DNA of 64,000 nucleotides, from the NCBI GenBank assembly GCA_040954595.2, contig CM082587.2, positions 11,897,262 to 11,961,261 of the forward strand, in the 5' to 3' direction. The translations under genes were made by a program, and so were the position numbers. The DNA comes from Balanoglossus misakiensis (Eukaryota > Animalia > Hemichordata). This document shows, piece by piece, positions 6,001 through 28,200 of this stretch (the first letter of the stretch is position 1; every line of letters starts with the position of its first letter). A model generated the notes under the pieces. The model was not told the origin of the DNA and searched no databases. It was given only the letters and a program-made list of their open reading frames with translations.

Positions 6001-9000
6001 ATGGTCTTTAACCCTGTTTCAAATTAGAGTACTTTCTGCAATTTCAAGACAGATCTTACGTGCCATTGGAGAGCTCCATTGACTGGTCATTCATACTGTT
6101 TTCATTCATTCATTGCGGCATCAATATATTTTATCTATTCTAGCCAAAGAGCTTGGCACCTGTTGAAATGAACTCATCTGCTGTGGGCCAGTTTATTGGT
6201 GGCAGTTGAGCTGAGAAGAGCACCTTCCTTCCCGGCACGCCACCAAGTAAAGTTCCACGCCGCCCACCACAGATGCCAGCATTCATTCATGCGAGTGAGT
6301 GTAATTGCAAATTTGCCTATTCTAGATCTGTAATGGAAATGGAGAAAGTACCTTATATTTTCTGTAAAATAGACATTTAATTGGCAAGCCGTCCTGCATC
6401 AATTATGAATTGTGTACATGCACTAAAGCGCCCTCACTGCTGGGTGTGTTGTATGGTCTTTAACCCTGTTTCAAATTAGAGTACTTTCTGCAATTTCAAG
6501 ACAGATCTTACGTGCCATTGGAGAGCTCCATTGACTGGTCATTCATACTGTTTTCATTCATTCATTGCGGCATCAATATATTTTATCTATTCTAGCCAAA
6601 GAGCTTGGCACCTGTTGAAATGAACTCATCTGCTGTGGGCCAGTTTATTGGTGGCAGTTGAGCTGAGGAGAGCACCTTCCTTCCCGGCACGCCACCAAGT
6701 AAAGTTCCACGCCGCCCACCACAGATGCCAGCATTCATTCATGCGAGTGAGTGTAATTGCAAATTTGCCTATTCTAGATCTGTAATGGAAATGGAGAAAG
6801 TACCTTATATTTTCTGTAAAATAGACATTTAATTGGCAAGCCGTCCTGCATCAATTATGAATTGTGTACATGCACTAAAGCGCCCTCACTGCTGGGTGTG
6901 TTGTATGGTCTTTAACCCTGTTTCAAATTAGAGTACTTTCTGCAATTTCAAGACAGATCTTACGTGCCATTGGAGAGCTCCATTGACTGGTCATTCATAC
7001 TGTTTTCATTCATTCATTGCGGCATCAATATATTTTATCTATTCTAGCCAAAGAGCTTGGCACCTGTTGAAATGAACTCATCTGCTGTGGGCCAGTTTAT
7101 TGGTGGCAGTTGAGCTGAGGAGAGCACCTTCCTTCCCGGCACGCCACCAAGTAAAGTTCCACGCCGCCCACCACAGATGCCAGCATTCATTCATGCGAGT
7201 GAGTGTAATTGCAAATTTGCCTATTCTAGATCTGTAATGGAAATGGAGAAAGTACCTTATATTTTCTGTAAAATAGACATTTAATTGGCAAGCCGTCCTG
7301 CATCAATTATGAATTGTGTACATGCACTAAAGCGCCCTCACTGCTGGGTGTGTTGTATGGTCTTTAACCCTGTTTCAAATTAGAGTACTTTCTGCAATTT
7401 CAAGACAGATCTTACGTGCCATTGGAGAGCTCCATTGACTGGTCATTCATACTGTTTTCATTCATTCATTGCGGCATCAATATATTTTATGTATTCTAGC
7501 CAAAGAGCTTGGCACCTGTTGAAATGAACTCATCTGCTGTGGGCCAGTTTATTGGTGGCAGTTGAGCTGAGGAGAGCACCTTCCTTCCCGGCACGCCACC
7601 AAGTAAAGTTCCACGCCGCCCACCACAGATGCCAGCATTCATTCATGCGAGTGAGTGTAATTGCAAATTTGCCTATTCTAGATCTGTAATGGAAATGGAG
7701 AAAGTACCTTATATTTTCTGTAAAATAGACATTTAATTGGCAAGCCGTCCTGCATCAATTATTAATTGTGTACATGCACTAAAGCGCCCTCACTGCTGGG
7801 TGTGTTGTATGGTCTTTAACCCTGTTTCAAATTAGAGTACTTTCTGCAATTTCAAGACAGATCTTACGTGCCATTGGAGAGCTCCATTGACTGGTCATTC
7901 ATACTGTTTTCATTCATTCATTGCGGCATCAATATATTTTATCTATTCTAGCCAAAGAGCTTGGCACCTGTTGAAATGAACTCATCTGCTGTGGGCCAGT
8001 TTATTGGTGGCAGTTGAGCTGAGGAGAGCACCTTCCTTCCCGGCACGCCACCAAGTAAAGTTCCACGCCGCCCACCACAGATGCCAGCATTCATTCATGC
8101 GAGTGAGTGTAATTGCAAATTTGCCTATTCTAGAATTACGTGCCATTGGAGAGCTCCATTGACTGGTCATTCATACTGTTTTCATTCATTCATTGCGGCA
8201 TCAATATATTTTATCTATTCTAGCCAAAGAGCTTGGCACCTGTTGAAATGAACTCATCTGCTGTGGGCCAGTTTATTGGTGGCAGTTGAGCTGAGGAGAG
8301 CACCTTCCTTCCCGGCACGCCACCAAGTAAAGTTCCACGCCGCCCACCACAGATGCCAGCATTCATTCATGCGAGTGAGTGTAATTGCAAATTTGCCTAT
8401 TCTAGATCTGTAATGGAAATGGAGAAAGTACCTTATATTTTCTGTAAAATAGACATTTAATTGGCAAGCCGTCCTGCATCAATTATGAATTGTGTACATG
8501 CACTAAAGCGCCCTCACTGCTGGGTGTGTTGTATGGTCTTTAACCCTGTTTCAAATTAGAGTACTTTCTGCAATTTCAAGACAGATCTTACGTGCCATTG
8601 GAGAGCTCCATTGACTGGTCATTCATACTGTTTTCATTCATTCATTGCGGCATCAATATATTTTATCTATTCTAGCCAAAGAGCTTGGCACCTGTTGAAA
8701 TGAACTCATCTGCTGTGGGCCAGTTTATTGGTGGCAGTTGAGCTGAGGAGAGCACCTTCCTTCCCGGCACGCCACCAAGTAAAGTTCCACGCCGCCCACC
8801 ACAGATGCCAGCATTCATTCATGCGAGTGAGTGTAATTGCAAATTTGCCTATTCTAGAATCTTACGTGCCATTGGAGAGCTCCATTGACTGGTCATTCAT
8901 ACTGTTTTCATTCATTCATTGCGGCATCAATATATTTTATCTATTCTAGCCAAAGAGCTTGGCACCTGTTGAAATGAACTCATCTGCTGTGGGCCAGTTT

Positions 9001-12000
9001 ATTGGTGGCAGTTGAGCTGAGGAGAGCACCTTCCTTCCCGGCACGCCACCAAGTAAAGTTCCACGCCGCCCACCACAGATGCCAGCATTCATTCATGCGA
9101 GTGAGTGTAATTGCAAATTTGCCTATTCTAGATCTGTAATGGAAATGGAGAAAGTACCTTATATTTTCTGTAAAATAGACATTTAATTGGCAAGCCGTCC
9201 TGCATCAATTATTAATTGTGTACATGCACTAAAGCGCCCTCACTGCTGGGTGTGTTGTATGGTCTTTAACCCTGTTTCAAATTAGAGTACTTTCTGCAAT
9301 TTCAAGACAGATCTTACGTGCCATTGGAGAGCTCCATTGACTGGTCATTCATACTGTTTTCATTCATTCATTGCGGCATCAATATATTTTATCTATTCTA
9401 GCCAAAGAGCTTGGCACCTGTTGAAATGAACTCATCTGCTGTGGGCCAGTTTATTGGTGGCAGTTGAGCTGAGAAGAGCACCTTCCTTCCCGGCACGCCA
9501 CCAAGTAAAGTTCCACGCCGCCCACCACAGATGCCAGCATTCATTCATGCGAGTGAGTGTAATTGCAAATTTGCCTATTCTAGATCTGTAATGGAAATGG
9601 AGAAAGTACCTTATATTTTCTGTAAAATAGACATTTAATTGGCAAGCCGTCCTGCATCAATTATGAATTGTGTACATGCACTAAAGCGCCCTCACTGCTG
9701 GGTGTGTTGTATGGTCTTTAACCCTGTTTCAAATTAGAGTACTTTCTGCAATTTCAAGACAGATCTTACGTGCCATTGGAGAGCTCCATTGACTGGTCAT
9801 TCATACTGTTTTCATTCATTCATTGCGGCATCAATATATTTTATCTATTCTAGCCAAAGAGCTTGGCACCTGTTGAAATGAACTCATCTGCTGTGGGCCA
9901 GTTTATTGGTGGCAGTTGAGCTGAGGAGAGCACCTTCCTTCCCGGCACGCCACCAAGTAAAGTTCCACGCCGCCCACCACAGATGCCAGCATTCATTCAT
10001 GCGAGTGAGTGTAATTGCAAATTTGCCTATTCTAGATCTGTAATGGAAATGGAGAAAGTACCTTATATTTTCTGTAAAATAGACATTTAATTGGCAAGCC
10101 GTCCTGCATCAATTATGAATTGTGTACATGCACTAAAGCGCCCTCACTGCTGGGTGTGTTGTATGGTCTTTAACCCTGTTTCAAATTAGAGTACTTTCTG
10201 CAATTTCAAGACAGATCTTACGTGCCATTGGAGAGCTCCATTGACTGGTCATTCATACTGTTTTCATTCATTCATTGCGGCATCAATATATTTTATCTAT
10301 TCTAGCCAAAGAGCTTGGCACCTGTTGAAATGAACTCATCTGCTGTGGGCCAGTTTATTGGTGGCAGTTGAGCTGAGGAGAGCACCTTCCTTCCCGGCAC
10401 GCCACCAAGTAAAGTTCCACGCCGCCCACCACAGATGCCAGCATTCATTCATGCGAGTGAGTGTAATTGCAAATTTGCCTATTCTAGATCTGTAATGGAA
10501 ATGGAGAAAGTACCTTATATTTTCTGTAAAATAGACATTTAATTGGCAAGCCGTCCTGCATCAATTATGAATTGTGTACATGCACTAAAGCGCCCTCACT
10601 GCTGGGTGTGTTGTATGGTCTTTAACCCTGTTTCAAATTAGAGTACTTTCTGCAATTTCAAGACAGATCTTACGTGCCATTGGAGAGCTCCATTGACTGG
10701 TCATTCATACTGTTTTCATTCATTCATTGCGGCATCAATATATTTTATCTATTCTAGCCAAAGAGCTTGGCACCTGTTGAAATGAACTCATCTGCTGTGG
10801 GCCAGTTTATTGGTGGCAGTTGAGCTGAGAAGAGCACCTTCCTTCCCGGCACGCCACCAAGTAAAGTTCCACGCCGCCCACCACAGATGCCAGCATTCAT
10901 TCATGCGAGTGAGTGTAATTGCAAATTTGCCTATTCTAGAATCTTACGTGCCATTGGAGAGCTCCATTGACTGGTCATTCATACTGTTTTCATTCATTCA
11001 TTGCGGCATCAATATATTTTATCTATTCTAGCCAAAGAGCTTGGCACCTGTTGAAATGAACTCATCTGCTGTGGGCCAGTTTATTGGTGGCAGTTGAGCT
11101 GAGGAGAGCACCTTCCTTCCCGGGACGCCACCAAGTAAAGTTCCACGCCGCCCACCACAGATGCCAGCATTCATTCATGCGAGTGAGTGTAATTGCAAAT
11201 TTGCCTATTCTAGATTCTTACGTGCCATTGGAGAGCTCCATTGACTGGTCATTCATACTGTTTTCATTCATTCATTGCGGCATCAATATATTTTATCTAT
11301 TCTAGCCAAAGAGCTTGGCACCTGTTGAAATGAACTCATCTGCTGTGGGCCAGTTTATTGGTGGCAGTTGAGCTGAGGAGAGCACCTTCCTTCCCGGCAC
11401 GCCACCAAGTAAAGTTCCACGCCGCCCACCACAGATGCCAGCATTCATTCATGCGAGTGAGTGTAATTGCAAATTTGCCTATTCTAGATCTGTAATGGAA
11501 ATGGAGAAAGTACCTTATATTTTCTGTAAAATAGACATTTAATTGGCAAGCCGTCCTGCATCAATTATTAATTGTGTACATGCACTAAAGCGCCCTCACT
11601 GCTGGGTGTGTTGTATGGTCTTTAACCCTGTTTCAAATTAGAGTACTTTCTGCAATTTCAAGACAGATCTTACGTGCCATTGGAGAGCTCCATTGACTGG
11701 TCATTCATACTGTTTTCATTCATTCATTGCGGCATCAATATATTTTATCTATTCTAGCCAAAGAGCTTGGCACCTGTTGAAATGAACTCATCTGCTGTGG
11801 GCCAGTTTATTGGTGGCAGTTGAGCTGAGGAGAGCACCTTCCTTCCCGGCACGCCACCAAGTAAAGTTCCACGCCGCCCACCACAGATGCCAGCATTCAT
11901 TCATGCGAGTGAGTGTAATTGCAAATTTGCCTATTCTAGATCTGTAATGGAAATGGAGAAAGTACCTTATATTTTCTGTAAAATAGACATTTAATTGGCA

Positions 12001-13953
12001 AGCCGTCCTGCATCAATTATGAATTGTGTACATGCACTAAAGCGCCCTCACTGCTGGGTGTGTTGTATGGTCTTTAACCCTGTTTCAAATTAGAGTACTT
12101 TCTGCAATTTCAAGACAGATCTTACGTGCCATTGGAGAGCTCCATTGACTGGTCATTCATACTGTTTTCATTCATTCATTGCGGCATCAATATATTTTAT
12201 GTATTCTAGCCAAAGAGCTTGGCACCTGTTGAAATGAACTCATCTGCTGTGGGCCAGTTTATTGGTGGCAGTTGAGCTGAGGAGAGCACCTTCCTTCCCG
12301 GCACGCCACCAAGTAAAGTTCCACGCCGCCCACCACAGATGCCAGCATTCATTCATGCGAGTGAGTGTAATTGCAAATTTGCCTATTCTAGATCTGTAAT
12401 GGAAATGGAGAAAGTACCTTATATTTTCTGTAAAATAGACATTTAATTGGCAAGCCGTCCTGCATCAATTATTAATTGTGTACATGCACTAAAGCGCCCT
12501 CACTGCTGGGTGTGTTGTATGGTCTTTAACCCTGTTTCAAATTAGAGTACTTTCTGCAATTTCAAGACAGATCTTACGTGCCATTGGAGAGCTCCATTGA
12601 CTGGTCATTCATACTGTTTTCATTCATTCATTGCGGCATCAATATATTTTATCTATTCTAGCCAAAGAGCTTGGCACCTGTTGAAATGAACTCATCTGCT
12701 GTGGGCCAGTTTATTGGTGGCAGTTGAGCTGAGGAGAGCACCTTCCTTCCCGGCACGCCACCAAGTAAAGTTCCACGCCGCCCACCACAGATGCCAGCAT
12801 TCATTCATGCGAGTGAGTGTAATTGCAAATTTGCCTATTCTAGAATTACGTGCCATTGGAGAGCTCCATTGACTGGTCATTCATACTGTTTTCATTCATT
12901 CATTGCGGCATCAATATATTTTATCTATTCTAGCCAAAGAGCTTGGCACCTGTTGAAATGAACTCATCTGCTGTGGGCCAGTTTATTGGTGGCAGTTGAG
13001 CTGAGGAGAGCACCTTCCTTCCCGGCACGCCACCAAGTAAAGTTCCACGCCGCCCACCACAGATGCCAGCATTCATTCATGCGAGTGAGTGTAATTGCAA
13101 ATTTGCCTATTCTAGATCTGTAATGGAAATGGAGAAAGTACCTTATATTTTCTGTAAAATAGACATTTAATTGGCAAGCCGTCCTGCATCAATTATGAAT
13201 TGTGTACATGCACTAAAGCGCCCTCACTGCTGGGTGTGTTGTATGGTCTTTAACCCTGTTTCAAATTAGAGTACTTTCTGCAATTTCAAGACAGATCTTA
13301 CGTGCCATTGGAGAGCTCCATTGACTGGTCATTCATACTGTTTTCATTCATTCATTGCGGCATCAATATATTTTATCTATTCTAGCCAAAGAGCTTGGCA
13401 CCTGTTGAAATGAACTCATCTGCTGTGGGCCAGTTTATTGGTGGCAGTTGAGCTGAGGAGAGCACCTTCCTTCCCGGCACGCCACCAAGTAAAGTTCCAC
13501 GCCGCCCACCACAGATGCCAGCATTCATTCATGCGAGTGAGTGTAATTGCAAATTTGCCTATTCTAGATCTGTAATGGAAATGGAGAAAGTACCTTATAT
13601 TTTCTGTAAAATAGACATTTAATTGGCAAGCCGTCCTGCATCAATTATGAATTGTGTACATGCACTAAAGCGCCCTCACTGCTGGGTGTGTTGTATGGTC
13701 TTTAACCCTGTTTCAAATTAGAGTACTTTCTGCAATTTCAAGACAGATCTTACGTGCCATTGGAGAGCTCCATTGACTGGTCATTCATACTGTTTTCATT
13801 CATTCATTGCGGCATCAATATATTTTATCTATTCTAGCCAAAGAGCTTGGCACCTGTTGAAATGAACTCATCTGCTGTGGGCCAGTTTATTGGTGGCAGT
13901 TGAGCTGAGGAGAGCACCTTCCTTCCCGGCACGCCACCAAGTAAAGTTCCACG
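1..13953. repeat. Tandem satellite array, left arm; mix of 452-bp (MITE-filled) and 272/274/275-bp (empty) monomers
   Basis: TGAAATGAACTCATCTG recurs at 1, 453, 727, 1001, 1453, 1725... (periods 452, 274, 274, 452, 272). Monomers are near-identical and head-to-tail. The array breaks after ...GTAAAGTTCCACG at 13953. Confidence 0.98.
161..345. mobile_element. MITE-like non-autonomous element (representative copy; present in every 452-bp monomer)
   Basis: 161-188 AGATCTGTAATGGAAATGGAGAAAGTAC matches the reverse complement of 318-345 (AGATCTGTCTTGAAATTGCAGAAAGTAC) at 23/28. AGATCT is repeated 179 bp apart. The segment is absent from short monomers. TSD length is ambiguous (AT, GATC or AGATCT) because the site is palindromic. 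Confidence 0.85.
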
Positions 13954-15746
13954 TGCATTCCTGGCCCTGGTTTTATTTATGTTTACAGACAATATTGCAT
14001 TTTTGTACAAGTATTTTAATCAACTATAAATTTTGAATGTGTCATTTACCTGAACCGGTCATGTTGACCAGAATGATACATTTCTGCCTTCACTCACCCT
14101 ATAAATATGTGATTGAGACATAGGTCATTTGCATAAGCTAACATACCAGAAAGTAAGCATATCTGTTGTTTTCCCTGTGTCACTGCCATCAAAGTAAAAA
14201 TTAGACGTTGTGTAGAGCAAACTCCAATTTTTTGTTCTCAATAAACATGGATGAATTACATAGAATGTGTTTGTTGTTTACAGTCTTTAAATGACACATT
14301 AGATTATGCACTTTACAAAACGTTTCTGAGAAACAAGTGACTAACTAGTTTCTTTCCACTGTGGCCAACGTGGTTCACTGTTTGTGTCAGAATCTCTCTG
14401 TTTTGCAAGGATTTTGAAATCATAGTGGTGACATGCATAGTGAAAATCAGCTACTTTCAAATGTCCGTCATGTTCATGCTGTAATTGAATTTTCAAAGCT
14501 GGGCTGGCGTGTTTTTTCTTATTTACATAAGTATCACACTTTATACATGTATCTTCATGGGGTTTTTTGAGTCCCGTATTTAGGTCCTCTCTCACAATTT
14601 TACGAAATATCGTATAACTGACAGTTGTTCTTCCCAGAAGAGATTGGTTGGTTATGAACTCTCGGTGTAACTGCGATATACTGTGGTCCGGCGCCAGGTA
14701 CGGTTTAAATCGAGGATTCCTGCAGTAGTGAGATTCTACAATTCTGTGCCTGCGTACGTGTTCAGTGATATCAGTCAGCAAATTTGGATTGAGTTTCCGA
14801 CGATGCCCTTTGTGTCGGCCCCTTGCATCTGGCATCAGACCAGTAAAGTTCCATGTGCATTCCTGGCCCTGGTTTTATTTATGTTTACAGACAATATTGC
14901 ATTTTTGTACAAGTATTTTAATCAACTATAAATTTTGAATGTGTCATTTACCTGAACCGGTCATGTTGACCAGAATGATACATTTCTGCCTTCACTCACC
15001 CTATAAATATGTGATTGAGACATAGGTCATTTGCATAAGCTAACATACCAGAAAGTAAGCATATCTGTTGTTTTCCCTGTGTCACTGCCATCAAAGTAAA
15101 AATTAGACGTTGTGTAGAGCAAACTCCAATTTTTTGTTCTCAATAAACATGGATGAATTACATAGAATGTGTTTGTTGTTTACAGTCTTTAAATGACACA
15201 TTAGATTATGCACTTTACAAAACGTTTCTGAGAAACAAGTGACTAACTAGTTTCTTTCCACTGTGGCCAACGTGGTTCACTGTTTGTGTCAGAATCTCTC
15301 TGTTTTGCAAGGATTTTGAAATCATAGTGGTGACATGCATAGTGAAAATCAGCTACTTTCAAATGTCCGTCATGTTCATGCTGTAATTGAATTTTCAAAG
15401 CTGGGCTGGCGTGTTTTTTCTTATTTACATAAGTATCACACTTTATACATGTATCTTCATGGGGTTTTCTGAGTCCCGTATTTAGGTCCTCTCTCACAAT
15501 TTTACGAAATATCGTATAACTGACAGTTGTTCTTCCCAGAAGAGATTGGTTGGTTATGAACTCTCGGTGTAACTGCGATATACTGTGGTCCGGCGCCAGG
15601 TACGGTTTAAATCGAGGATTCCTGCAGTAGTGAGATTCTACAATTCTGTGCCTGCGTACGTGTTCAGTGATATCAGTCAGCAAATTTGGATTGAGTTTCC
15701 GACGATGCCCTTTGTGTCGGCCCCTTGCATCTGGCATCAGACCAGT
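13940..15746. repeat. 902-bp tandem duplication (two copies)
   Basis: GTAAAGTTCCA(C/T)GTGCATTCCTGG occurs at 13941 and 14843. Both copies end ...GGCATCAGACCAGT. Two substitutions noticed between copies. AGT microhomology at the junction. Confidence 0.95.
14341..14835 (-). pseudogene. 5'-truncated duplicate of the transposase N-half ORF (its last 164 codons)
   Basis: Identical to the C-terminal 164 aa of 15243-16205 except R->K (GLRKP/GLKKP). Created by the 902-bp duplication. Confidence 0.85.
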
Positions 15747-16199
15747 TGAACAGTGCATCATTTTGCTTAGAACGGTTCTAGTCCGCCTCTCACTAATGCC
15801 AAATAATTTCAGGAATGCATTTTTGCAGACAGTAACCGTTTCACCGCCTTCATTCACCAGGTGATAACGAACCGATTTCTTGTGTGACTTCATCTGTATA
15901 TCCATCAGTTTGTAGAGCATCAAGTTCTGTTCATTATACACGCGACCATCAAAATATTTTCTCGTGGTGCCTAAAACATGCGTACTCCCAAGCTTCCGCA
16001 GACAATTCCCTTGAACGCAGGCGCATTCCAAGGAAAGACTGTCAATATCTGGAAAAGGGCGATTTTTCCTTGGTTTTTGTCTCGGACACGTCTTTTTAGA
16101 ATTCCTACGTGGCTTGTTGGCTCGAGCTGACAGTTCGGTTCTGCGTTGCTGCCACACAGGAATGGGTTCCCACGCATAAGCAACTCCCCGGCAGGCCAT
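15243..16199 (-). CDS. Sola1-like transposase N-terminal half (Cys/His-rich, putative DNA-binding), 318 aa from first ATG
   Basis: Motif series CxC..C, VCKNAFLKLFGIS, DARGRH, ESHYCR..YL, YTIFRKI, KPHEDTCIKCD, H..H...A matches the region that normally precedes the catalytic core in Sola1-type transposases. The ORF is intact. Minus-strand AATAAA candidate near 14875. Confidence 0.75.
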   Translation of the reverse strand: MACRGVAYAWEPIPVWQQRRTELSARANKPRRNSKKTCPRQKPRKNRPFPDIDSLSLECACVQGNCLRKLGSTHVLGTTRKYFDGRVYNEQNLMLYKLMDIQMKSHKKSVRYHLVNEGGETVTVCKNAFLKLFGISERRTRTVLSKMMHCSTGLMPDARGRHKGHRRKLNPNLLTDITEHVRRHRIVESHYCRNPRFKPYLAPDHSISQLHREFITNQSLLGRTTVSYTIFRKIVREDLNTGLRKPHEDTCIKCDTYVNKKKHASPALKIQLQHEHDGHLKVADFHYACHHYDFKILAKQRDSDTNSEPRWPQWKETS

Positions 16200-16370
16200 G
16201 GTCACAGCTGAAGTATTTGTTCAAGTACTGACTGACTAAACGCGGCATGGAACAAACGAACGAACGAACGAACGACTTCACGTTCGGAAAAAAAATCGTT
16301 GCGAGCTGTTGGGTGCCTCTATAGTTGTCGGCAACCGTTCTTTTTTATTGCTAAACAATGCTGTCAGAGC
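16200..16370. promoter_or_regulatory. Putative bidirectional promoter between the two transposase halves
   Basis: 171 bp between divergent ATGs (16199 on -, 16371 on +). Contains ACTG x2-3, (GAAC)n at ~16258-16273 and TTCGGAA at 16283. Function is inferred from geometry only. Confidence 0.45.
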
Positions 16371-17384
16371 ATGGAAGGTGTGGTGGAAAACGAACAGAGG
16401 TTTTGTACGACCAACGATTGGATGGTGCTACATATGGACTTCCACAAGTCATTGCCGGTTCCTAAACTCAGCTCTGAAGACTTTTACTTTAAATCGAAAT
16501 TGCAAATGAAGCTCCTTGGAATTTACAACGGGACAACGGAAAAGATGCATTGTTATGTATGGACAGAGCTCGATAGCAGAAAGTCTCCCGATGAAGTTAT
16601 TACCTGTCTAAATCACTTTTTTTATAACTCGGGTGTGACCAGCAGACATGCAGTTATTTACAGCGACAACTGCCGTGCCGAATTCAAGTGTGGGAAGTTA
16701 ATGTTTTACTATGACTATCTGTTACGAAAGGGCGTGTTTCGACGAATTGACTATAAAACTCTTGTGGCTGGACACACGTACTCCACCTGTGACCGAGTTT
16801 TTGCGTCCATTGAAAGGCATGCAAGTCGTTTCCAGAGTATAGAGACACCTCACGATTGGACATCTGTGATTCGAGGATCTTCTCTGAATGGGAACATTGG
16901 AGTTACGGAGATGACTCACAGAGACTTTTTCAATTATTCTGATTTCCTGAAAAATGAGTACGTTGTGCGTTATGCAGATACAAACAATGTAACTTTTTAC
17001 TACCAAGCCATGCACTATTTTAATTTTGGAGAAGGAGAAAGGCTTGATACCGACGGCAACCTCAGAACATTTAGTCATGCAGATAAAGTTTGGGTGAGAA
17101 CATCTCTAGATCCAAGCGAGACCCCGATTGTAGTCGACTTTAGAAAGAAGAAGCAGAACCGGCGTTTACAAGATTGTACGCTGAACAAACTTTATCAGGA
17201 ACGTCGACCACTGGCGAGCAAAGTTTGGCGGGATCTTCAGAGTTTAGCCAAAAATTACCTGTCTCCGGAGGCAATAGAATTTTATAGGAATCTACCGCTT
17301 CAGGAGAGTAGTGGCACCTCTGCAGACCCGTACGCCTTTCATGATGATGACGACGACGATGATGATGATATGGGCGGTGGTTGA
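16371..17384 (+). CDS. Sola1-like transposase catalytic (DDD) half, 337 aa from first in-frame ATG, acidic tail
   Basis: MDFHKSLPVPKL...FYFKSKL...YVWTE...DEVITCL...IYSDNC...LVAGHTYSTCDRVFASIE: three Asp in the typical Sola-like context (D-F, SDNC, GHTxxxCD). Ends in a poly-Asp run. Confidence 0.82.
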   Translation: MEGVVENEQRFCTTNDWMVLHMDFHKSLPVPKLSSEDFYFKSKLQMKLLGIYNGTTEKMHCYVWTELDSRKSPDEVITCLNHFFYNSGVTSRHAVIYSDNCRAEFKCGKLMFYYDYLLRKGVFRRIDYKTLVAGHTYSTCDRVFASIERHASRFQSIETPHDWTSVIRGSSLNGNIGVTEMTHRDFFNYSDFLKNEYVVRYADTNNVTFYYQAMHYFNFGEGERLDTDGNLRTFSHADKVWVRTSLDPSETPIVVDFRKKKQNRRLQDCTLNKLYQERRPLASKVWRDLQSLAKNYLSPEAIEFYRNLPLQESSGTSADPYAFHDDDDDDDDDMGGG

Positions 17385-17484
17385 ACAAACTGTCCTTTTC
17401 ATGACGACAGTGATTTTGGATATTTGATGTGCGTGCACAGTTTATATGTAATATTTTCACACGAACGAGTTTTGACTGAATTTG

Positions 17485-17570
17485 ATTAAAGAATGTACTC
17501 GATAATTAACAAATGTGCTGAATCGTGGTTATTATGTTGTTAATTTTTGTTTGTTTGTTTGTTTGTTTGT
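17485..17570 (+). terminator. Candidate poly(A) signal with downstream GT-rich tract
   Basis: ATTAAA at 17485-17490, ~100 bp after the stop, followed by (TTTG)n at ~17546-17570. Confidence 0.4.
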
Positions 17571-17702
17571 AAACAATTTCCGTTCATTCAACTGGCTACA
17601 AAGTTGGATTTTTGTACTGGGAAGCGATAAACTCGCACATCAAAACCGGGGAGACTCGATCATTTTTCCCTGCAGGTAGCCTGAAAAGCACCCGGGCAGA
17701 GA

Positions 17703-17776
17703 TTACGTCATATATGGTCCACTTTAATACGAAATTATGCAAATGTGACATTTCACGGAAACGGCGTATATAAAAG
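17703..17776 (+). promoter_or_regulatory. Pol II promoter of the SET gene: CRE-like site, octamer and TATA box
   Basis: TTACGTCA 17703-17710, ATGCAAAT 17737-17744, TATAAAAG 17769-17776, ~90 bp upstream of ATG 17868. Confidence 0.6.
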
Positions 17777-17867
17777 CGACCCTGGGCTATTGTTCGGAAT
17801 GCGTCATCGACGAGAGAGTGACTGATAATTCTTCTACCTCGAGTCAACCATTCTGTATATACTGAAC

Positions 17868-19194
17868 ATGGCTAGCTGGCGCAGGAAGAGACAAGGCAAT
17901 GTGCGGTCTGTAATCAACGAACGGCACCGCTCAGTTCAGTGTCCCTTTCTTCAAAAGTGGATCGGTGAGCAATTGGTATTTTCAGGTCGTTCAGAGGATG
18001 AAGTCCAGTCCAGTACTGTATTTGAGAGCTACAAATGTTGGGTTGAAAACTATTCGTCGGCGGACAATCAAGTAATGATTATGGTTACTAAAGCTCGATT
18101 TTTCAAGGTGAGAATGATCGCATTTTTCTTCCCCCCCCCCCTCCCTCCCCCAAGGGACTCGTTTTCTGTCTCTTTTAAACCTGTAACTTAACGAAAAGGA
18201 AGTTTTTCACATATCTCTTTGTTGACACTATAGCAATTTGGAGCGCGGATGCTTCAAGAGAATAGCGTTACCAAATCAAAGTCGGCCGGGGTTAATATTT
18301 ATAGAGGTGTTCGTCTGAAAGCTGGTTCGCGAAGAATCTCAACGGGGAAACCTGAGCACAGTGTACTTCAGACCAGGGCAAGGGCATTTCTTGATGACGC
18401 CAGCGTGACCGTTCCGATCGAGGTAAGAATGGTGTTTTGTTTGGACTAGGACAATAGAACGTTGCAATGAGTGTGTCAATGGGTGTCCAAGTGCAAACGT
18501 GGTCGGCTTCTGTCCACAAATGCCATTAATTTTAGGCAGGATTTATAAAATTGTCAATGAAGAATACAAAAATGAAAAACAATAGTTAATAGCAAACGGG
18601 TAGGATTGCAAGGGCTTGTAAAACGGTACACACTGTACCAGGAAGTTTGCAACACTAATGAAGAATGTATATGATATATTTAGGTGAGAACTGTTCGCGA
18701 TCGCCGGGACGCAGGACGGTGCGCGTTTTCGACGAGGGATCTTCAAGCCTGGAACGTCGTCTGCGAATACCGGGGCACGGTTATTAGCGTTGAAGAAGCT
18801 AGTCGGCGTGATGAACTTTACAGGGCAGAGGGGAAACGACCACGCATGTTTCATCTCTACATTGGAAAGAGACACGTTGTGTGAGTGTATCACTTAGTCG
18901 AATATATGGTCATATATTGCAAAGCATCTGTCGAAATAGAAAACGTAATATTGTCTATATTTTCCTCATTAACGCAGCATTGACGGATACGATGTCCCAG
19001 CCGGTGAAGAAAATTTAGCGGGCCTAATAAATCACAGTCAGCAGAACGCCAACTTGGTACCGGTTCGGATCGGAGAGCGCCTGGTTTTCTTTGCAACCAG
19101 GAATCTTTGTCAGGGAGTAGAGCTTTTGTATGATTACGGTGACGGGGGTGAAGAGGATTTCTTCAGTGGTTCTCAAACTTTTCCTGAAAATTAA
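17868..19194 (+). CDS. Winged-helix-like + SET-domain lysine methyltransferase (SETD8/PR-Set7-like), 4 exons, 280 aa
   Basis: Exons 17868-18107, 18234-18422, 18684-18880, 18978-19194 with GT-AG introns (GTGAGA, GTAAGA, GTGAGT donors) join in frame (843 nt). SET motifs: GRCAFSTRD, VCEYRG, IDG, AGLINHS, FFATRNL..GVELLYDYGD. The N-terminus (VFESYKCW...FFKQF...IYRGVRLK) resembles an RFX/D5-type winged helix. Confidence 0.85.
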
Positions 19195-20101
19195 GGCATT
19201 AACACATCAACGCTTCGGGATGTCGTAACGGCGGCAAGGCGGGGGGGGGGGGGGGGGGGCGTGAAAATGTTTGTATCAGGAACAAAATTCCCGTGCAAAT
19301 CACCTTGATCCGGGTGGGTGGACTATTCGCGACAAATGTTGAAATCATACAAAGCATTTTACTTAATTAACCCATTTTTTTCATTTATTTGTTTACAGTT
19401 TACAACGTCATAGAGAAGTTGAACTAGAGACTGGATCAGCGTGGGTGACACCATAGTACACCAATGTTTTCTTCAGTTTGATTCAATTGTAATTTAAAAC
19501 TGAGATTGCCTAACGCTTTCCCAGATTTTTTTAACCACTGAGAAACTGTGGGTTTTTTTCTGGGTTTTGGTGCGAGGTGATCTCAGTCAGTGGTGTTAAT
19601 TTAATTAATCATTTTCTTTTCCTATTTACGTCGACTGAAATGTATTTTGATAGGTGATAGTCATACCATAAAAAAATCTTACGGCGCGACTGCCAAAATG
19701 TACATTTATTTGTCCGTTCCAAGTTATTTTGTGTATGTGTGATGGGTGCCGGTGACTGTGCAGGGTTGATTTCCCTAGAGCGACTGTTATATTCGTTTTC
19801 CAACGATGATGAATTTACATGTTATTTGCTTGGCATTTTGACGCAGAGACACTTCTGAAAACACAAACCTATTAATTATGCCACGGGTGTAAATTGATCA
19901 CATTAAAAGAGGCTTTAGACGTTTGCCGCGAGCTCCTGGTGGGCAGAATCTTGTCAGCCCAAATTTGACTATAAGTACATAGCCAATGATGTGACGCTCT
20001 CCCACATCCTTCGCCGCGCCTTTTCGCTGATTTACAGCATCTTGCGTAAACACTGTCATTTGATCTTGCTTGGCAGAAGTCAACTTGCTCTATACTACAT
20101 T

Positions 20102-20467
20102 ATGGCGGCCAAGCTCAACTGCATATCAGATAATGCCAAGGAGCGTTTGAGAGGCATCCTCGCCAGAAGGAGTCGCGTTTCCGGTGACTGTGTGCTCTGG
20201 ACGGGTGCAGCTTGTCGAAACGGCTATGGCTCTATTACGTTCAGAGATGAGAACACTCTAACCGCCTATGTCCATCACATTGCACTCCTAATTAACGGAG
20301 TGCAATTGGTGGGCAGGCGGTTAGAGTGTTCTCATCTTTGCAACGAAAAGCTATGCATCCGCCCAGAGCACATTGTCCAGGAAACGCGACTCCTAAACAT
20401 TTCACGAAAGACGTGCTTTAAATCCCCAAAAGGGGAGTGTCACCACGATCCCAGGTGCCTAAGGTGA
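20102..20467 (+). CDS. His-Cys box (His-Me finger) homing-endonuclease-like protein, 121 aa from ATG
   Basis: CVLWTG...GYG...VHH...SHLCNEKLCIRPEHIVQE...NISRKTC...CHHDPRC matches the zinc-binding loop pattern of I-PpoI-type His-Cys box nucleases. Confidence 0.85.
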   Translation: MAAKLNCISDNAKERLRGILARRSRVSGDCVLWTGAACRNGYGSITFRDENTLTAYVHHIALLINGVQLVGRRLECSHLCNEKLCIRPEHIVQETRLLNISRKTCFKSPKGECHHDPRCLR

Positions 20468-20758
20468 GTAATCCTCTTCTCATTTGATATGTATTGTGTG
20501 ACCCTGCAGTTGAAACGCTTTCATCAATAATTTGCGGCGCGTGGGTAATCTCGGTGTTATTGACAATGCAGCCGGCCCAAACATTTTTAAATTAACACTG
20601 TTTCTGACTGTATTAACGAAATGTCCAATTTGCAAGTAGCCTATAGACAACCCTTTTGAATGAGTTTTGTCTCGTTGAGATTTTATACATAAGGAACAAT
20701 CTAGATTTATTTTAGAAGACACTGTTCTTTTAAAACAGCTAGCATAATACAGCTAAAT

Positions 20759-21126
20759 TTCGGAATTTCCGGACAATTTTCGGAATTCCTTTTAAATTTG
20801 AGAAATTTTTCATCAGATATAAGTGTTACTATTTATTGGACATGTTTTTATCATTGTTTACTTTTTAAGGTCATTCTCATCCCCCCCCCCCCCCCCCAAA
20901 AAAAAGCCGCTTTAGGCTTCATGTTCAGTAAAAAATCTGGAAAGTTCAGCTGAATTTTACACTGATCACACATTTTTGGGAAGGTCTGGCGCAAAATAAA
21001 GGATGACAAATGTAAATCTAATGTCACATTTGTAAACCTCTAAGTATTGTACACTCATTCTATTAAGTATATGCAAATAGTACGGATAATTTTTTCGGAA
21101 TGTGGAATTCCGAAATTAGTTCGGAA
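20759..21126. repeat. Inverted repeat pair and TTCGGAA motif cluster
   Basis: 20767-20789 TTCCGGACAATTTTCGGAATTCC matches the reverse complement of 21104-21126 (TTCCGAACTAATTTCGGAATTCC) at 20/23. TTCGGAA or its complement at 20759, 20779, 21094, 21108, 21120. Confidence 0.6.
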
Positions 21127-21450
21127 CGTGTTAGCAGTGAAGAGATCACCACTGAGGGTTGGAAGGCCTTGCCAGAAATTAACGCGTAAAGTACGCCCTC
21201 ACAGGCCATGTAAACAAGGTCAAATAAGGCCGTCTGGCAAACGAATGATTAATTCAACGCGCCATTTGAGCCGAGCTGAGTTGGTCTGAGTTGCGTATCA
21301 CACAGACTTAGGCTGAATGTCAGTGGAGTAACCAGTCCGTTTTAGATTTACCAATGATGTGAATTTAATTTCTTCACCCAGAAAAACAGAACACAACTTG
21401 TCTGCAACATGATGCTGGAGGTGACACATGACAGAGAAGTGGATCCGCGT

Positions 21451-21787
21451 TGTCAACACAGATGCCAGCATTCAAAAGGGGAGTGCCACCTGCTAAAATC
21501 AACTCATCTGCTGTTGGCCCATTTTACCTGTGGCAACTGTTCAGAGGAGACAACGTTTATTCCGTGCAAGCCAACACGCAATGTTGGGGTCTACCTGTCA
21601 ACACAGATGCAAGCATTCATGTGAGTGAGTATCAGGACTGACCTTGTTTTGCTGAATAATTCATAATGCCTATTTTAGAATTCTTAGAGGCATTTGGAGT
21701 TCATTGCCTGGTCAACCAAACTACACCCCTTAACAGCTGAAACAAAATGCGTATTGTGTTCATTCATTCATTGCTTCAATATATATA
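21451..21787 (+). repeat. Diverged copy of the satellite monomer inside the island
   Basis: Colinear matches: CACCTG..AAAT.AACTCATCTGCTGT.GGCC, GAGGAGA, CACAGATGC.AGCATTCAT, GAGTGAGT, TGCCTATT.TAGAATTCTTA, CATTG.CTGGTCA, TTCATTCATTCATTGC..TCAATATAT. Includes a 24-bp direct repeat at 21451 and 21596. Confidence 0.88.
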
Positions 21788-22253
21788 GGCAACATGAGTA
21801 TCAAGTAGCACTATTTGTTTACGATTGTATTCATGAAAACTTCCCACTAACAATTCCACAGTTAATATTGAACACATTTATCCAACAAGGTCAAAAGAAA
21901 AAGGGAATCTTCTGGTTCCAAAATACGCCACAAATGTGGGTCAACATACAGTGAAATATTATGGTGCTCAAATATGCAACATATCAAATCTGTCTCATCA
22001 AAGTCATGCTTTAAAAAAGAATTGAAAAGGTATTATTTATCCATTTGACTGCTGTATTTTCAGAAGGAAAACAAACTGAATTTGGTTTTTCATGTACAAA
22101 TATTTTCTGTAAAATAGACATTTAATTGGCAAGCCGTCCTGCATCAATTATTAATTGTGTACATGCACTAAAGCGCCCTCACTGCTGGGTGTGTTGTATG
22201 GTCTTTAACCCTGTTTCAAATTAGAGTACTTTCTGCAATTTCAAGACAGATCT

Positions 22254-25200
22254 TACGTGCCATTGGAGAGCTCCATTGACTGGTCATTCATACTGTTTTC
22301 ATTCATTCATTGCGGCATCAATATATTTTATGTATTCTAGCCAAAGAGCTTGGCACCTGTTGAAATGAACTCATCTGCTGTGGGCCAGTTTATTGGTGGC
22401 AGTTGAGCTGAGGAGAGCACCTTCCTTCCCGGCACGCCACCAAGTAAAGTTCCACGCCGCCCACCACAGATGCCAGCATTCATTCATGCGAGTGAGTGTA
22501 ATTGCAAATTTGCCTATTCTAGATCTGTAATGGAAATGGAGAAAGTACCTTATATTTTCTGTAAAATAGACATTTAATTGGCAAGCCGTCCTGCATCAAT
22601 TATGAATTGTGTACATGCACTAAAGCGCCCTCACTGCTGGGTGTGTTGTATGGTCTTTAACCCTGTTTCAAATTAGAGTACTTTCTGCAATTTCAAGACA
22701 GATCTTACGTGCCATTGGAGAGCTCCATTGACTGGTCATTCATACTGTTTTCATTCATTCATTGCGGCATCAATATATTTTATCTATTCTAGCCAAAGAG
22801 CTTGGCACCTGTTGAAATGAACTCATCTGCTGTGGGCCAGTTTATTGGTGGCAGTTGAGCTGAGGAGAGCACCTTCCTTCCCGGCACGCCACCAAGTAAA
22901 GTTCCACGCCGCCCACCACAGATGCCAGCATTCATTCATGCGAGTGAGTGTAATTGCAAATTTGCCTATTCTAGAATTACGTGCCATTGGAGAGCTCCAT
23001 TGACTGGTCATTCATACTGTTTTCATTCATTCATTGCGGCATCAATATATTTTATCTATTCTAGCCAAAGAGCTTGGCACCTGTTGAAATGAACTCATCT
23101 GCTGTGGGCCAGTTTATTGGTGGCAGTTGAGCTGAGGAGAGCACCTTCCTTCCCGGCACGCCACCAAGTAAAGTTCCACGCCGCCCACCACAGATGCCAG
23201 CATTCATTCATGCGAGTGAGTGTAATTGCAAATTTGCCTATTCTAGATCTGTAATGGAAATGGAGAAAGTACCTTATATTTTCTGTAAAATAGACATTTA
23301 ATTGGCAAGCCGTCCTGCATCAATTATGAATTGTGTACATGCACTAAAGCGCCCTCACTGCTGGGTGTGTTGTATGGTCTTTAACCCTGTTTCAAATTAG
23401 AGTACTTTCTGCAATTTCAAGACAGATCTTACGTGCCATTGGAGAGCTCCATTGACTGGTCATTCATACTGTTTTCATTCATTCATTGCGGCATCAATAT
23501 ATTTTATCTATTCTAGCCAAAGAGCTTGGCACCTGTTGAAATGAACTCATCTGCTGTGGGCCAGTTTATTGGTGGCAGTTGAGCTGAGGAGAGCACCTTC
23601 CTTCCCGGCACGCCACCAAGTAAAGTTCCACGCCGCCCACCACAGATGCCAGCATTCATTCATGCGAGTGAGTGTAATTGCAAATTTGCCTATTCTAGAA
23701 TCTTACGTGCCATTGGAGAGCTCCATTGACTGGTCATTCATACTGTTTTCATTCATTCATTGCGGCATCAATATATTTTATCTATTCTAGCCAAAGAGCT
23801 TGGCACCTGTTGAAATGAACTCATCTGCTGTGGGCCAGTTTATTGGTGGCAGTTGAGCTGAGGAGAGCACCTTCCTTCCCGGCACGCCACCAAGTAAAGT
23901 TCCACGCCGCCCACCACAGATGCCAGCATTCATTCATGCGAGTGAGTGTAATTGCAAATTTGCCTATTCTAGATCTGTAATGGAAATGGAGAAAGTACCT
24001 TATATTTTCTGTAAAATAGACATTTAATTGGCAAGCCGTCCTGCATCAATTATTAATTGTGTACATGCACTAAAGCGCCCTCACTGCTGGGTGTGTTGTA
24101 TGGTCTTTAACCCTGTTTCAAATTAGAGTACTTTCTGCAATTTCAAGACAGATCTTACGTGCCATTGGAGAGCTCCATTGACTGGTCATTCATACTGTTT
24201 TCATTCATTCATTGCGGCATCAATATATTTTATCTATTCTAGCCAAAGAGCTTGGCACCTGTTGAAATGAACTCATCTGCTGTGGGCCAGTTTATTGGTG
24301 GCAGTTGAGCTGAGAAGAGCACCTTCCTTCCCGGCACGCCACCAAGTAAAGTTCCACGCCGCCCACCACAGATGCCAGCATTCATTCATGCGAGTGAGTG
24401 TAATTGCAAATTTGCCTATTCTAGATCTGTAATGGAAATGGAGAAAGTACCTTATATTTTCTGTAAAATAGACATTTAATTGGCAAGCCGTCCTGCATCA
24501 ATTATGAATTGTGTACATGCACTAAAGCGCCCTCACTGCTGGGTGTGTTGTATGGTCTTTAACCCTGTTTCAAATTAGAGTACTTTCTGCAATTTCAAGA
24601 CAGATCTTACGTGCCATTGGAGAGCTCCATTGACTGGTCATTCATACTGTTTTCATTCATTCATTGCGGCATCAATATATTTTATCTATTCTAGCCAAAG
24701 AGCTTGGCACCTGTTGAAATGAACTCATCTGCTGTGGGCCAGTTTATTGGTGGCAGTTGAGCTGAGGAGAGCACCTTCCTTCCCGGCACGCCACCAAGTA
24801 AAGTTCCACGCCGCCCACCACAGATGCCAGCATTCATTCATGCGAGTGAGTGTAATTGCAAATTTGCCTATTCTAGATCTGTAATGGAAATGGAGAAAGT
24901 ACCTTATATTTTCTGTAAAATAGACATTTAATTGGCAAGCCGTCCTGCATCAATTATGAATTGTGTACATGCACTAAAGCGCCCTCACTGCTGGGTGTGT
25001 TGTATGGTCTTTAACCCTGTTTCAAATTAGAGTACTTTCTGCAATTTCAAGACAGATCTTACGTGCCATTGGAGAGCTCCATTGACTGGTCATTCATACT
25101 GTTTTCATTCATTCATTGCGGCATCAATATATTTTATCTATTCTAGCCAAAGAGCTTGGCACCTGTTGAAATGAACTCATCTGCTGTGGGCCAGTTTATT

Positions 25201-28200
25201 GGTGGCAGTTGAGCTGAGGAGAGCACCTTCCTTCCCGGCACGCCACCAAGTAAAGTTCCACGCCGCCCACCACAGATGCCAGCATTCATTCATGCGAGTG
25301 AGTGTAATTGCAAATTTGCCTATTCTAGATCTGTAATGGAAATGGAGAAAGTACCTTATATTTTCTGTAAAATAGACATTTAATTGGCAAGCCGTCCTGC
25401 ATCAATTATGAATTGTGTACATGCACTAAAGCGCCCTCACTGCTGGGTGTGTTGTATGGTCTTTAACCCTGTTTCAAATTAGAGTACTTTCTGCAATTTC
25501 AAGACAGATCTTACGTGCCATTGGAGAGCTCCATTGACTGGTCATTCATACTGTTTTCATTCATTCATTGCGGCATCAATATATTTTATCTATTCTAGCC
25601 AAAGAGCTTGGCACCTGTTGAAATGAACTCATCTGCTCTGGGCCAGTTTATTGGTGGCAGTTGAGCTGAGGAGAGCACCTTCCTTCCCGGCACGCCACCA
25701 AGTAAAGTTCCACGCCGCCCACCACAGATGCCAGCATTCATTCATGCGAGTGAGTGTAATTGCAAATTTGCCTATTCTAGATCTGTAATGGAAATGGAGA
25801 AAGTACCTTATATTTTCTGTAAAATAGACATTTAATTGGCAAGCCGTCCTGCATCAATTATGAATTGTGTACATGCACTAAAGCGCCCTCACTGCTGGGT
25901 GTGTTGTATGGTCTTTAACCCTGTTTCAAATTAGAGTACTTTCTGCAATTTCAAGACAGATCTTACGTGCCATTGGAGAGCTCCATTGACTGGTCATTCA
26001 TACTGTTTTCATTCATTCATTGCGGCATCAATATATTTTATCTATTCTAGCCAAAGAGCTTGGCACCTGTTGAAATGAACTCATCTGCTGTGGGCCAGTT
26101 TATTGGTGGCAGTTGAGCTGAGAAGAGCACCTTCCTTCCCGGCACGCCACCAAGTAAAGTTCCACGCCGCCCACCACAGATGCCAGCATTCATTCATGCG
26201 AGTGAGTGTAATTGCAAATTTGCCTATTCTAGAATCTTACGTGCCATTGGAGAGCTCCATTGACTGGTCATTCATACTGTTTTCATTCATTCATTGCGGC
26301 ATCAATATATTTTATCTATTCTAGCCAAAGAGCTTGGCACCTGTTGAAATGAACTCATCTGCTGTGGGCCAGTTTATTGGTGGCAGTTGAGCTGAGGAGA
26401 GCACCTTCCTTCCCGGGACGCCACCAAGTAAAGTTCCACGCCGCCCACCACAGATGCCAGCATTCATTCATGCGAGTGAGTGTAATTGCAAATTTGCCTA
26501 TTCTAGATTCTTACGTGCCATTGGAGAGCTCCATTGACTGGTCATTCATACTGTTTTCATTCATTCATTGCGGCATCAATATATTTTATCTATTCTAGCC
26601 AAAGAGCTTGGCACCTGTTGAAATGAACTCATCTGCTGTGGGCCAGTTTATTGGTGGCAGTTGAGCTGAGGAGAGCACCTTCCTTCCCGGCACGCCACCA
26701 AGTAAAGTTCCACGCCGCCCACCACAGATGCCAGCATTCATTCATGCGAGTGAGTGTAATTGCAAATTTGCCTATTCTAGATCTGTAATGGAAATGGAGA
26801 AAGTACCTTATATTTTCTGTAAAATAGACATTTAATTGGCAAGCCGTCCTGCATCAATTATTAATTGTGTACATGCACTAAAGCGCCCTCACTGCTGGGT
26901 GTGTTGTATGGTCTTTAACCCTGTTTCAAATTAGAGTACTTTCTGCAATTTCAAGACAGATCTTACGTGCCATTGGAGAGCTCCATTGACTGGTCATTCA
27001 TACTGTTTTCATTCATTCATTGCGGCATCAATATATTTTATCTATTCTAGCCAAAGAGCTTGGCACCTGTTGAAATGAACTCATCTGCTGTGGGCCAGTT
27101 TATTGGTGGCAGTTGAGCTGAGGAGAGCACCTTCCTTCCCGGCACGCCACCAAGTAAAGTTCCACGCCGCCCACCACAGATGCCAGCATTCATTCATGCG
27201 AGTGAGTGTAATTGCAAATTTGCCTATTCTAGAATTACGTGCCATTGGAGAGCTCCATTGACTGGTCATTCATACTGTTTTCATTCATTCATTGCGGCAT
27301 CAATATATTTTATCTATTCTAGCCAAAGAGCTTGGCACCTGTTGAAATGAACTCATCTGCTGTGGGCCAGTTTATTGGTGGCAGTTGAGCTGAGGAGAGC
27401 ACCTTCCTTCCCGGCACGCCACCAAGTAAAGTTCCACGCCGCCCACCACAGATGCCAGCATTCATTCATGCGAGTGAGTGTAATTGCAAATTTGCCTATT
27501 CTAGATCTGTAATGGAAATGGAGAAAGTACCTTATATTTTCTGTAAAATAGACATTTAATTGGCAAGCCGTCCTGCATCAATTATGAATTGTGTACATGC
27601 ACTAAAGCGCCCTCACTGCTGGGTGTGTTGTATGGTCTTTAACCCTGTTTCAAATTAGAGTACTTTCTGCAATTTCAAGACAGATCTTACGTGCCATTGG
27701 AGAGCTCCATTGACTGGTCATTCATACTGTTTTCATTCATTCATTGCGGCATCAATATATTTTATCTATTCTAGCCAAAGAGCTTGGCACCTGTTGAAAT
27801 GAACTCATCTGCTGTGGGCCAGTTTATTGGTGGCAGTTGAGCTGAGGAGAGCACCTTCCTTCCCGGCACGCCACCAAGTAAAGTTCCACGCCGCCCACCA
27901 CAGATGCCAGCATTCATTCATGCGAGTGAGTGTAATTGCAAATTTGCCTATTCTAGATCTGTAATGGAAATGGAGAAAGTACCTTATATTTTCTGTAAAA
28001 TAGACATTTAATTGGCAAGCCGTCCTGCATCAATTATGAATTGTGTACATGCACTAAAGCGCCCTCACTGCTGGGTGTGTTGTATGGTCTTTAACCCTGT
28101 TTCAAATTAGAGTACTTTCTGCAATTTCAAGACAGATCTTACGTGCCATTGGAGAGCTCCATTGACTGGTCATTCATACTGTTTTCATTCATTCATTGCG

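Follow-up and report, generated by a model that had tools for sequence, protein, structure and literature searches.

A predicted Sola1-type transposase encoded as two divergent genes in the hemichordate Balanoglossus misakiensis

Why would the two ends of what looks like a single transposase be encoded by two genes that point away from each other? The question is raised by a 64,000-nucleotide (nt) stretch of the Balanoglossus misakiensis genome (assembly GCA_040954595.2, contig CM082587.2, positions 11,897,262 to 11,961,261; hereafter the window, numbered from its first base). Nearly all of the window is one satellite, and the single 8.1-kb island that breaks the array holds two head-to-head open reading frames (ORFs). 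A sequence-only reading had taken them for a maintained two-subunit transposase expressed from a bidirectional promoter, and not for the product of a random inversion. We asked whether the two ORFs belong to one protein, how old their separation is, and how far the divergent order extends.

Two halves of one predicted transposase

The pair lies where the sequence-only reading had placed it. The N-half gene (318 amino acids, aa; minus strand, 15243..16199) and the C-half gene (337 aa; plus strand, 16371..17384) each run from their own ATG to their own stop without a frameshift, and 171 bp separate the start codons (16200..16370). When this 2.1 kb was shuffled 2,000 times, the longest stop-free frame had 241 codons and none reached 318. 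Pfam identified the plus ORF as DUF7869 (PF25273, E 1.1e-14), a predicted catalytic subunit with an RNase H fold, and assigned no family to the minus ORF.

A word-index search recovered neither relatives of the minus ORF nor longer relatives of the plus ORF; a full HMMER search did find them. With the minus ORF it returned 2,597 proteins at E <= 0.001, the 150 best of which were listed. Among the listed matches of at least 550 aa, 50 of 56 also matched the plus ORF (E < 1e-3, in a set of 153 proteins), in each of the 50 on the C-terminal side of the minus-ORF match. Profile comparison placed the minus family (probability 100, E 2.8e-44) on residues ~66-306 of the 614-aa single-chain relative P0033, and the plus family (probability 100, E 2e-43) on residues 313-596, so that the two profiles tile P0033 collinearly and without overlap. 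In the AlphaFold model of this protein (mean predicted local distance difference test, pLDDT, 88.8), a helix spans residues 277-310 and the first catalytic strand, with D320, residues 314-321. Because the gap between the profiles falls there, the break corresponds to the end of the helix and the turn before the catalytic strand, a domain boundary; the earlier reading had placed it in the linker. By homology, the two ORFs are thus not members of unrelated families: both map onto the same single-chain DUF7869 proteins, as the collinear N- and C-terminal halves of one Sola1-type DDD transposase.

The N-half carries the SHYCR and DTCIKCD motifs that had first drawn attention to it, and its conserved positions include C61, C66, C125, DxRG (157-160), SHY (189-191), DTCxxC (249-254) and H279; the Cys/His motifs match those of the single-chain relatives. 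It is basic (net charge +30), the C-half acidic (-7), and beyond the long helix it ends in a lineage-specific tail. We predict that it is the DNA-binding and Zn-binding subunit.

The C-half begins, as had been noted, shortly before the first catalytic Asp, with 22 residues ahead of D23. D23, D99 and D141 fall on positions that are 95-97% conserved in 39 single-chain relatives, and the triad is kept in all three split C-halves, which also share a Gln to Glu change in the GQN motif. A model of the C-half folds confidently alone (pLDDT 87.6, predicted template modelling score 0.85) and matches the cores of integrases, mariner and IstA, best that of the prototype foamy virus (PFV) integrase (Z 10.6, root-mean-square deviation 3.0, 133 residues aligned). 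Foldseek with the entire single-chain model gave integrase-core matches only. For the family assignment we turned to the Sola1 RNase H profile of 124 consensus positions given in the supplement of PMC5751038. The C-half is in register with its first 30 and last 17 positions, the 47 of 124 compared by eye: the start of the profile aligns without gaps around D23 and an invariant Pro followed by an aromatic pair, and its end is the Gly-His motif preceding D141. On this by-eye fit, a Sola1-type identity of the pair is well supported, and the choice of Sola1 over Sola2 (6 positions read) and Sola3 (none) is provisional.

The spacer is CpG-rich (observed/expected 1.51 vs 0.45 in the satellite), which makes it a candidate bidirectional promoter, and the GAAC microsatellite within it varies from copy to copy. 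Candidate poly(A) signals had been proposed for both genes. Hexamers do exist on both sides (plus, ATTAAA at 17485; minus, ATTAAA at 14922 and AATAAA at 14879), but in AT-rich DNA they are weak evidence.

Age of the split and order of the halves

We then investigated whether the division is particular to this copy. The six proteins that match the minus ORF best stand alone, are 306-347 aa long and align with it over nearly their whole length. Together with P0014, P0050 and P0073 they make nine stand-alone N-half relatives among the listed matches, which end 47-66 residues past the CxxC in a common tail; the remaining short matches stop at varied places, often within scrambled sequence. A pattern built on the tail hit 10 of 157 proteins, every one of them split-type, but not the split-type proteins P0007 and P0050. 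In a midpoint-rooted tree of the N region, from which fragments other than the split type were left out, the window and the nine split relatives stand on one side and 42 single-chain proteins on the other (support 100/99). Pairwise identity among the split N-halves, the window's included, is 22-48% (median 31%), and despite this divergence they retain the Cys/His, DxRG and SHY motifs.

The catalytic side gives the same picture. In the word-index search the plus ORF had only two matches near its own length, the stand-alone C-halves P0001 (~51% identity) and P0002 (47%; Saccoglossus kowalevskii LOC100368598), and both begin just before the first catalytic strand, as the C-half of the window does. 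A C-half tree made by a quick method, excluding P0059 (zero aligned residues), united the three split rows with a Shimodaira-Hasegawa-like approximate likelihood ratio (SH-aLRT) of 100, together with a long-branch warning. Named relatives of the halves occur in a hemichordate and in cnidarians; in Oculina patagonica an N-half relative is annotated as a 359-aa protein. Like the GT-AG introns in the island, these relatives suggest animal DNA, probably that of a marine invertebrate. The closest relatives of both halves are therefore themselves split and cut at the same position, which bears out the proposal of a maintained split. On these comparisons the split is old and kept in a deep animal lineage, and is not an accident of the window copy.

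Whether the halves also lie side by side elsewhere can be approached through P0001, the best relative of the C-half, and P0004, that of the N-half. Each sits on a 2,400-nt Logan contig, the sole tie among the 16 listed Logan contigs compared by size, and their ORFs would take 1,881 of the 2,400 nt. P0001 and P0004 are thus probably neighbours on the same contig, in whichever orientation. The sequence-only reading had proposed a search for the divergent layout in other species. This probable adjacency supports such a layout indirectly; a second contig, taken up below, does not show it.

A two-protein model and its alternatives

We put at about 60% the reading that the island carries divergent genes for the N-terminal and catalytic halves, separated at one ancient split point, with the two proteins likely rebuilding the enzyme and both genes likely transcribed from the shared spacer. 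Two mRNAs would leave the CpG-rich 171 bp in opposite directions. The basic, Cys/His-rich N protein would bind the element ends and recruit the C protein, whose RNase H fold would supply the DDD site, and the two would meet via the long helix that precedes the break. The back-to-back order would reflect an inversion that carried the ancestral promoter and the N part with it, during or after fission. In Harbinger transposons, a Myb-like protein binds the ends and brings in the transposase, and both proteins are needed. By analogy, a Harbinger-style two-protein mode of working, built from a Sola1-type enzyme, is our best working model.

Several observations weigh against this reading. The split group was hand-picked by its tail before the N-region tree was built, and the tree has a long branch and a midpoint root. 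Most relatives are gene calls on eukaryotic contigs, where a "stand-alone" protein could be a single exon from a spliced gene. Within the C-half, S72 and C107 replace a Gly and an Asn at positions at least 92% conserved in single-chain relatives, and the closest split relatives keep both conserved residues. The spacer has out-of-frame upstream ATGs (16247 and 16358 on the plus strand, 16248 on the minus strand). The island has no detectable terminal inverted repeats: between 13901-14350 and 19201-22150 the best inverted match was 25, against up to 31 in shuffles, and none of the 25 longest inverted pairs in 13800-22300 connects the island ends. Nor was a target duplication found for the island copy, whose element ends may have been lost.

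The head-to-head order has moreover been seen in the genome of the window only. The contig L001 (4,965 bp) carries at its end P0050, an N-half from a sister sub-branch, and has no C-half on either strand in the 3,916 bp upstream of it; a single-chain profile detected the N-half in L001 and both halves in the window. Since this N-half has no partner upstream, split forms do not all share the head-to-head order. The contig ends inside the N-half, and the region downstream is cut off. The fission may have come earlier than the inversion, or the P0050 sub-branch may be arranged or used differently. No DNA of relatives was found in the viral contigs or the Joint Genome Institute (JGI) metagenome contigs searched, and the C-half alignment had no match in GTDB contigs, which leaves L001 as the only DNA of a relative recovered. 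The genome bin behind L001 gave no C-half match either and, as a bacterial bin with a stray eukaryote-like contig, is uninformative. L001 itself looks eukaryotic, with one long ORF, AT-rich non-coding DNA and three short repeats ~180 bp apart, and the record of its N-half protein lists it as bacterial; the contig is probably host contamination in the bin.

Among the alternatives, the one that survives best is that the pair is a domesticated or immobile descendant, both proteins being retained to serve the host or chromatin and not transposition. The bare ends of the island and the two changes at conserved positions of the C-half would fit such a role, as would the annotation of Oculina N-half relatives as ordinary genes and an N-half that stands apart from a C-half in L001. 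Domestication nevertheless appears unlikely: the catalytic triad is intact in all three C-halves, the island appears multi-copy and near-identical, with decayed C-half relatives elsewhere in the same sample, and the P0050 cluster has truncated members, two of them with longest contigs of equal size, as in a mobile family. The SET and His-Me genes that neighbour the pair, described below, are moreover of kinds known as transposon cargo (PMC12730594, PMC9587614).

The fission could also be old without the halves being obligate partners, the N-half acting as a lone DNA-binding regulator or repressor and the back-to-back order being limited to a sub-branch. L001 is again what one would expect, the sub-branch of P0014, P0050 and P0073 lacks the Trp/Pro tail, and nine split N-halves stand against two split C-halves among the matches listed. 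These counts are not comparable, since all representatives were read for the N-half and a word index was used for the C-half; a C-half could lie downstream of the point at which L001 stops, and a catalytic half with an intact triad would presumably need a DNA-binding partner. We therefore consider independent halves improbable.

A third alternative would join the two transcripts by trans-splicing into one mRNA and so restore a single-chain transposase. Exons on opposite strands are trans-spliced in Drosophila mod(mdg4), and there is an in-frame AG 3 nt ahead of the plus ATG (exon from 16368), with a pyrimidine tract of moderate quality. On the donor side, codon 282 holds the sole in-frame GT past minus codon 270; it agrees with the consensus at 3 of 6 positions, and its use would delete half of the conserved helix. 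Residues past codon 282 are conserved to the stop among split N-halves, and Saccoglossus P0003 keeps an internal Met at the same start position. With no good in-frame donor and a conserved tail, trans-splicing is very unlikely.

Finally, a recent inversion that broke an ordinary single-ORF Sola1 copy, its frames still open because young, is excluded in practice. For both halves the closest relatives, at 22-52% identity, share the split point, single-chain relatives are more distant than split ones, and the joints listed for the sample's contigs include none in un-inverted order. In favour of such an event is the recent rearrangement of the island, with its 902-bp duplication and satellite junctions.

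The preferred reading, a two-protein Sola1-type transposase, resembles several known systems in part. Sola elements have a DDD transposase, a 4-bp target duplication (AWWT for Sola1) and inverted repeats of 11-1124 bp, as described in PMC10741241 and PMC3845634. The window pair shares with Sola1 the DDD transposase with its RNase H fold, and its halves tile DUF7869 proteins of 550-900 aa. In Sola1_MR, however, the transposase is reported as a single ORF of 630 aa (PMC3845634), whereas here it occupies two genes on opposite strands, with a new tail on the N-half and a new start on the C-half. Because neither the single ORF nor any inverted repeat was found, the pair is set apart from an intact Sola1 element. 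PIF/Harbinger and Nuwa elements place DNA binding and catalysis on separate genes of one element, as we propose here (PMC12730594, PMC12477816); in PIF/Harbinger the partner is a Myb/SANT protein, whereas here it would be the transposase's own N-terminal half, and Harbingers described from Ectocarpus are tail-to-tail (PMC12477816), in contrast with the head-to-head pair. Membership of Harbinger itself was considered and rejected, the plus ORF being DUF7869 and the minus ORF a homologue of the N-terminal region in DUF7869 proteins.

We found no split Sola transposase described in the literature searched; Repbase, Bao et al. (2009) and Yuan and Wessler (2011) may contain one. Known two-protein DNA transposons such as Harbinger use an unrelated partner. 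The present pair descends from a known single-chain enzyme and is divided at a precisely defined point. It thus illustrates how fission can give rise to a two-component transposase, and how, after an inversion, one promoter could come to serve both halves. In a family for which PDB searches returned distant integrase-fold matches only, such a naturally occurring break opens the function of each domain to direct tests, and it could be adapted into a gene-transfer tool with two components that can be switched.

The island, its copies and its other genes

The island (13954..22099) lies between two arms of the satellite array (1..13953 and 22100..64000), both built of 452-bp and 272-275-bp monomers, and its edges cut satellite monomers at monomer positions 204 and 300. 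No Rfam family was found in 13000-23500. At its left end lies a tandem duplication with a 902-bp period (13936..15746), in which 13936-14844 equals 14839-15746 with 2 substitutions. The duplication starts in satellite sequence that partly resembles the N gene at the breakpoint. The duplicated segment takes in the 3' half of the N-half gene together with the 3' flank, and the result is a truncated 164-aa version of the gene's C-terminal part (14835-14341).

To compare copies we used contigs from two DNA runs of a single sample, possibly the one from which the window derives. Long contigs of nearly identical sequence cover both ORFs; the majority of them differ from the window at one coding site (N-half Ile101 to Met) and in the spacer, and show no joint or frameshift within either ORF. 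In one of the runs, X1, contig depth, which is not copy number, was ~760 on both ORFs, 1564.5 on the duplication and 32-69 on diverged fragments. A very rough estimate from this pattern is 10-25 near-identical copies with the duplication and the satellite junction in common; the duplication, at twice the island depth, is probably present in most of them. The copies were probably multiplied passively with the satellite, a better fit than transposition, and the window copy is probably immobilised; the lineage nonetheless looks maintained.

Two further genes lie downstream of the C-half, both at a contig depth similar to that of the island. The first is an intact SET-domain gene of 279 aa on the plus strand (17868..19194), with four exons (17868-18107, 18234-18422, 18684-18880 and 18978-19194) separated by GT-AG introns. 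Its spliced frame is open, and Pfam detected SET in exon 3 (E 0.003) and exon 4 (E 1.6e-7). The N part had no Pfam match, and presumably resembles a winged helix. The second is a 121-aa ORF (20102..20467) on the same strand as the C-half, a His-Me finger nuclease of the His-Cys box type (PF05551, E 2e-13). The coding RNA of the nuclease is predicted to fold into one hairpin of ~230 nt (~20168-20394; z -14.7, with 0 of 100 shuffles as stable), at -154.5 kcal/mol for the plus strand vs -140.6 for the minus. The coding sequence is a long imperfect palindrome, with conserved nuclease motifs in both arms. If formed, the modelled hairpin could silence or gate this DNA-cutting gene.

From position alone, the element to which the pair belongs probably carries both genes, SET and His-Me, as cargo, the former a candidate chromatin-modifying cargo. 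There are parallels elsewhere: HarbingerS and MuDR families are reported to carry SET genes (PMC12730594), and Sola1-1_Ec32 of Ectocarpus is likewise a large Sola1 element with an accessory chromatin-related gene (PMC12477816). That accessory gene encodes a ParB-methyltransferase with no relation to the transposase, and the passages of PMC12477816 consulted do not mention a split transposase. KolobokP carries a His-Me finger nuclease downstream of its transposase (PMC9587614), as the window does. Here, however, the transposase is DUF7869/Sola1-type and split, the inverted repeats of the satellite monomer are internal and not terminal, and the island ends at different monomer positions. Membership of KolobokP was rejected, as the DUF7869 and Sola1 matches point elsewhere. 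A broader picture, in which a marine-invertebrate Sola1-type lineage has long run on a heteromeric fission transposase under one promoter, with a SET gene and a hairpin-locked nuclease aboard, is somewhat less likely than not.

Diverged satellite lies within the island at ~21450-21790 (~70% identity over 151 bp); sample contigs show further members of this older variant, one of which adjoins a diverged version of the left end of the island. The 452-bp monomer contains a 175-bp insert with 28-bp imperfect inverted arms (for example 24423-24450 and 24580-24607), TG...CA ends and GATC on both sides. The insert is present at 95 of 141 satellite sites; the 46 sites that lack it show four distinct imprecise junctions (16, 14, 13 and 3 sites) and no precise one, and look like excision footprints that were amplified afterwards. 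The right junction of the island (22100) falls just within one such insert. Last, a short repeat at ~20756-21135, with 23-bp inverted arms (20767-20789 and 21104-21126) and raised contig depth, is probably a nested element resembling a miniature inverted-repeat transposable element (MITE).

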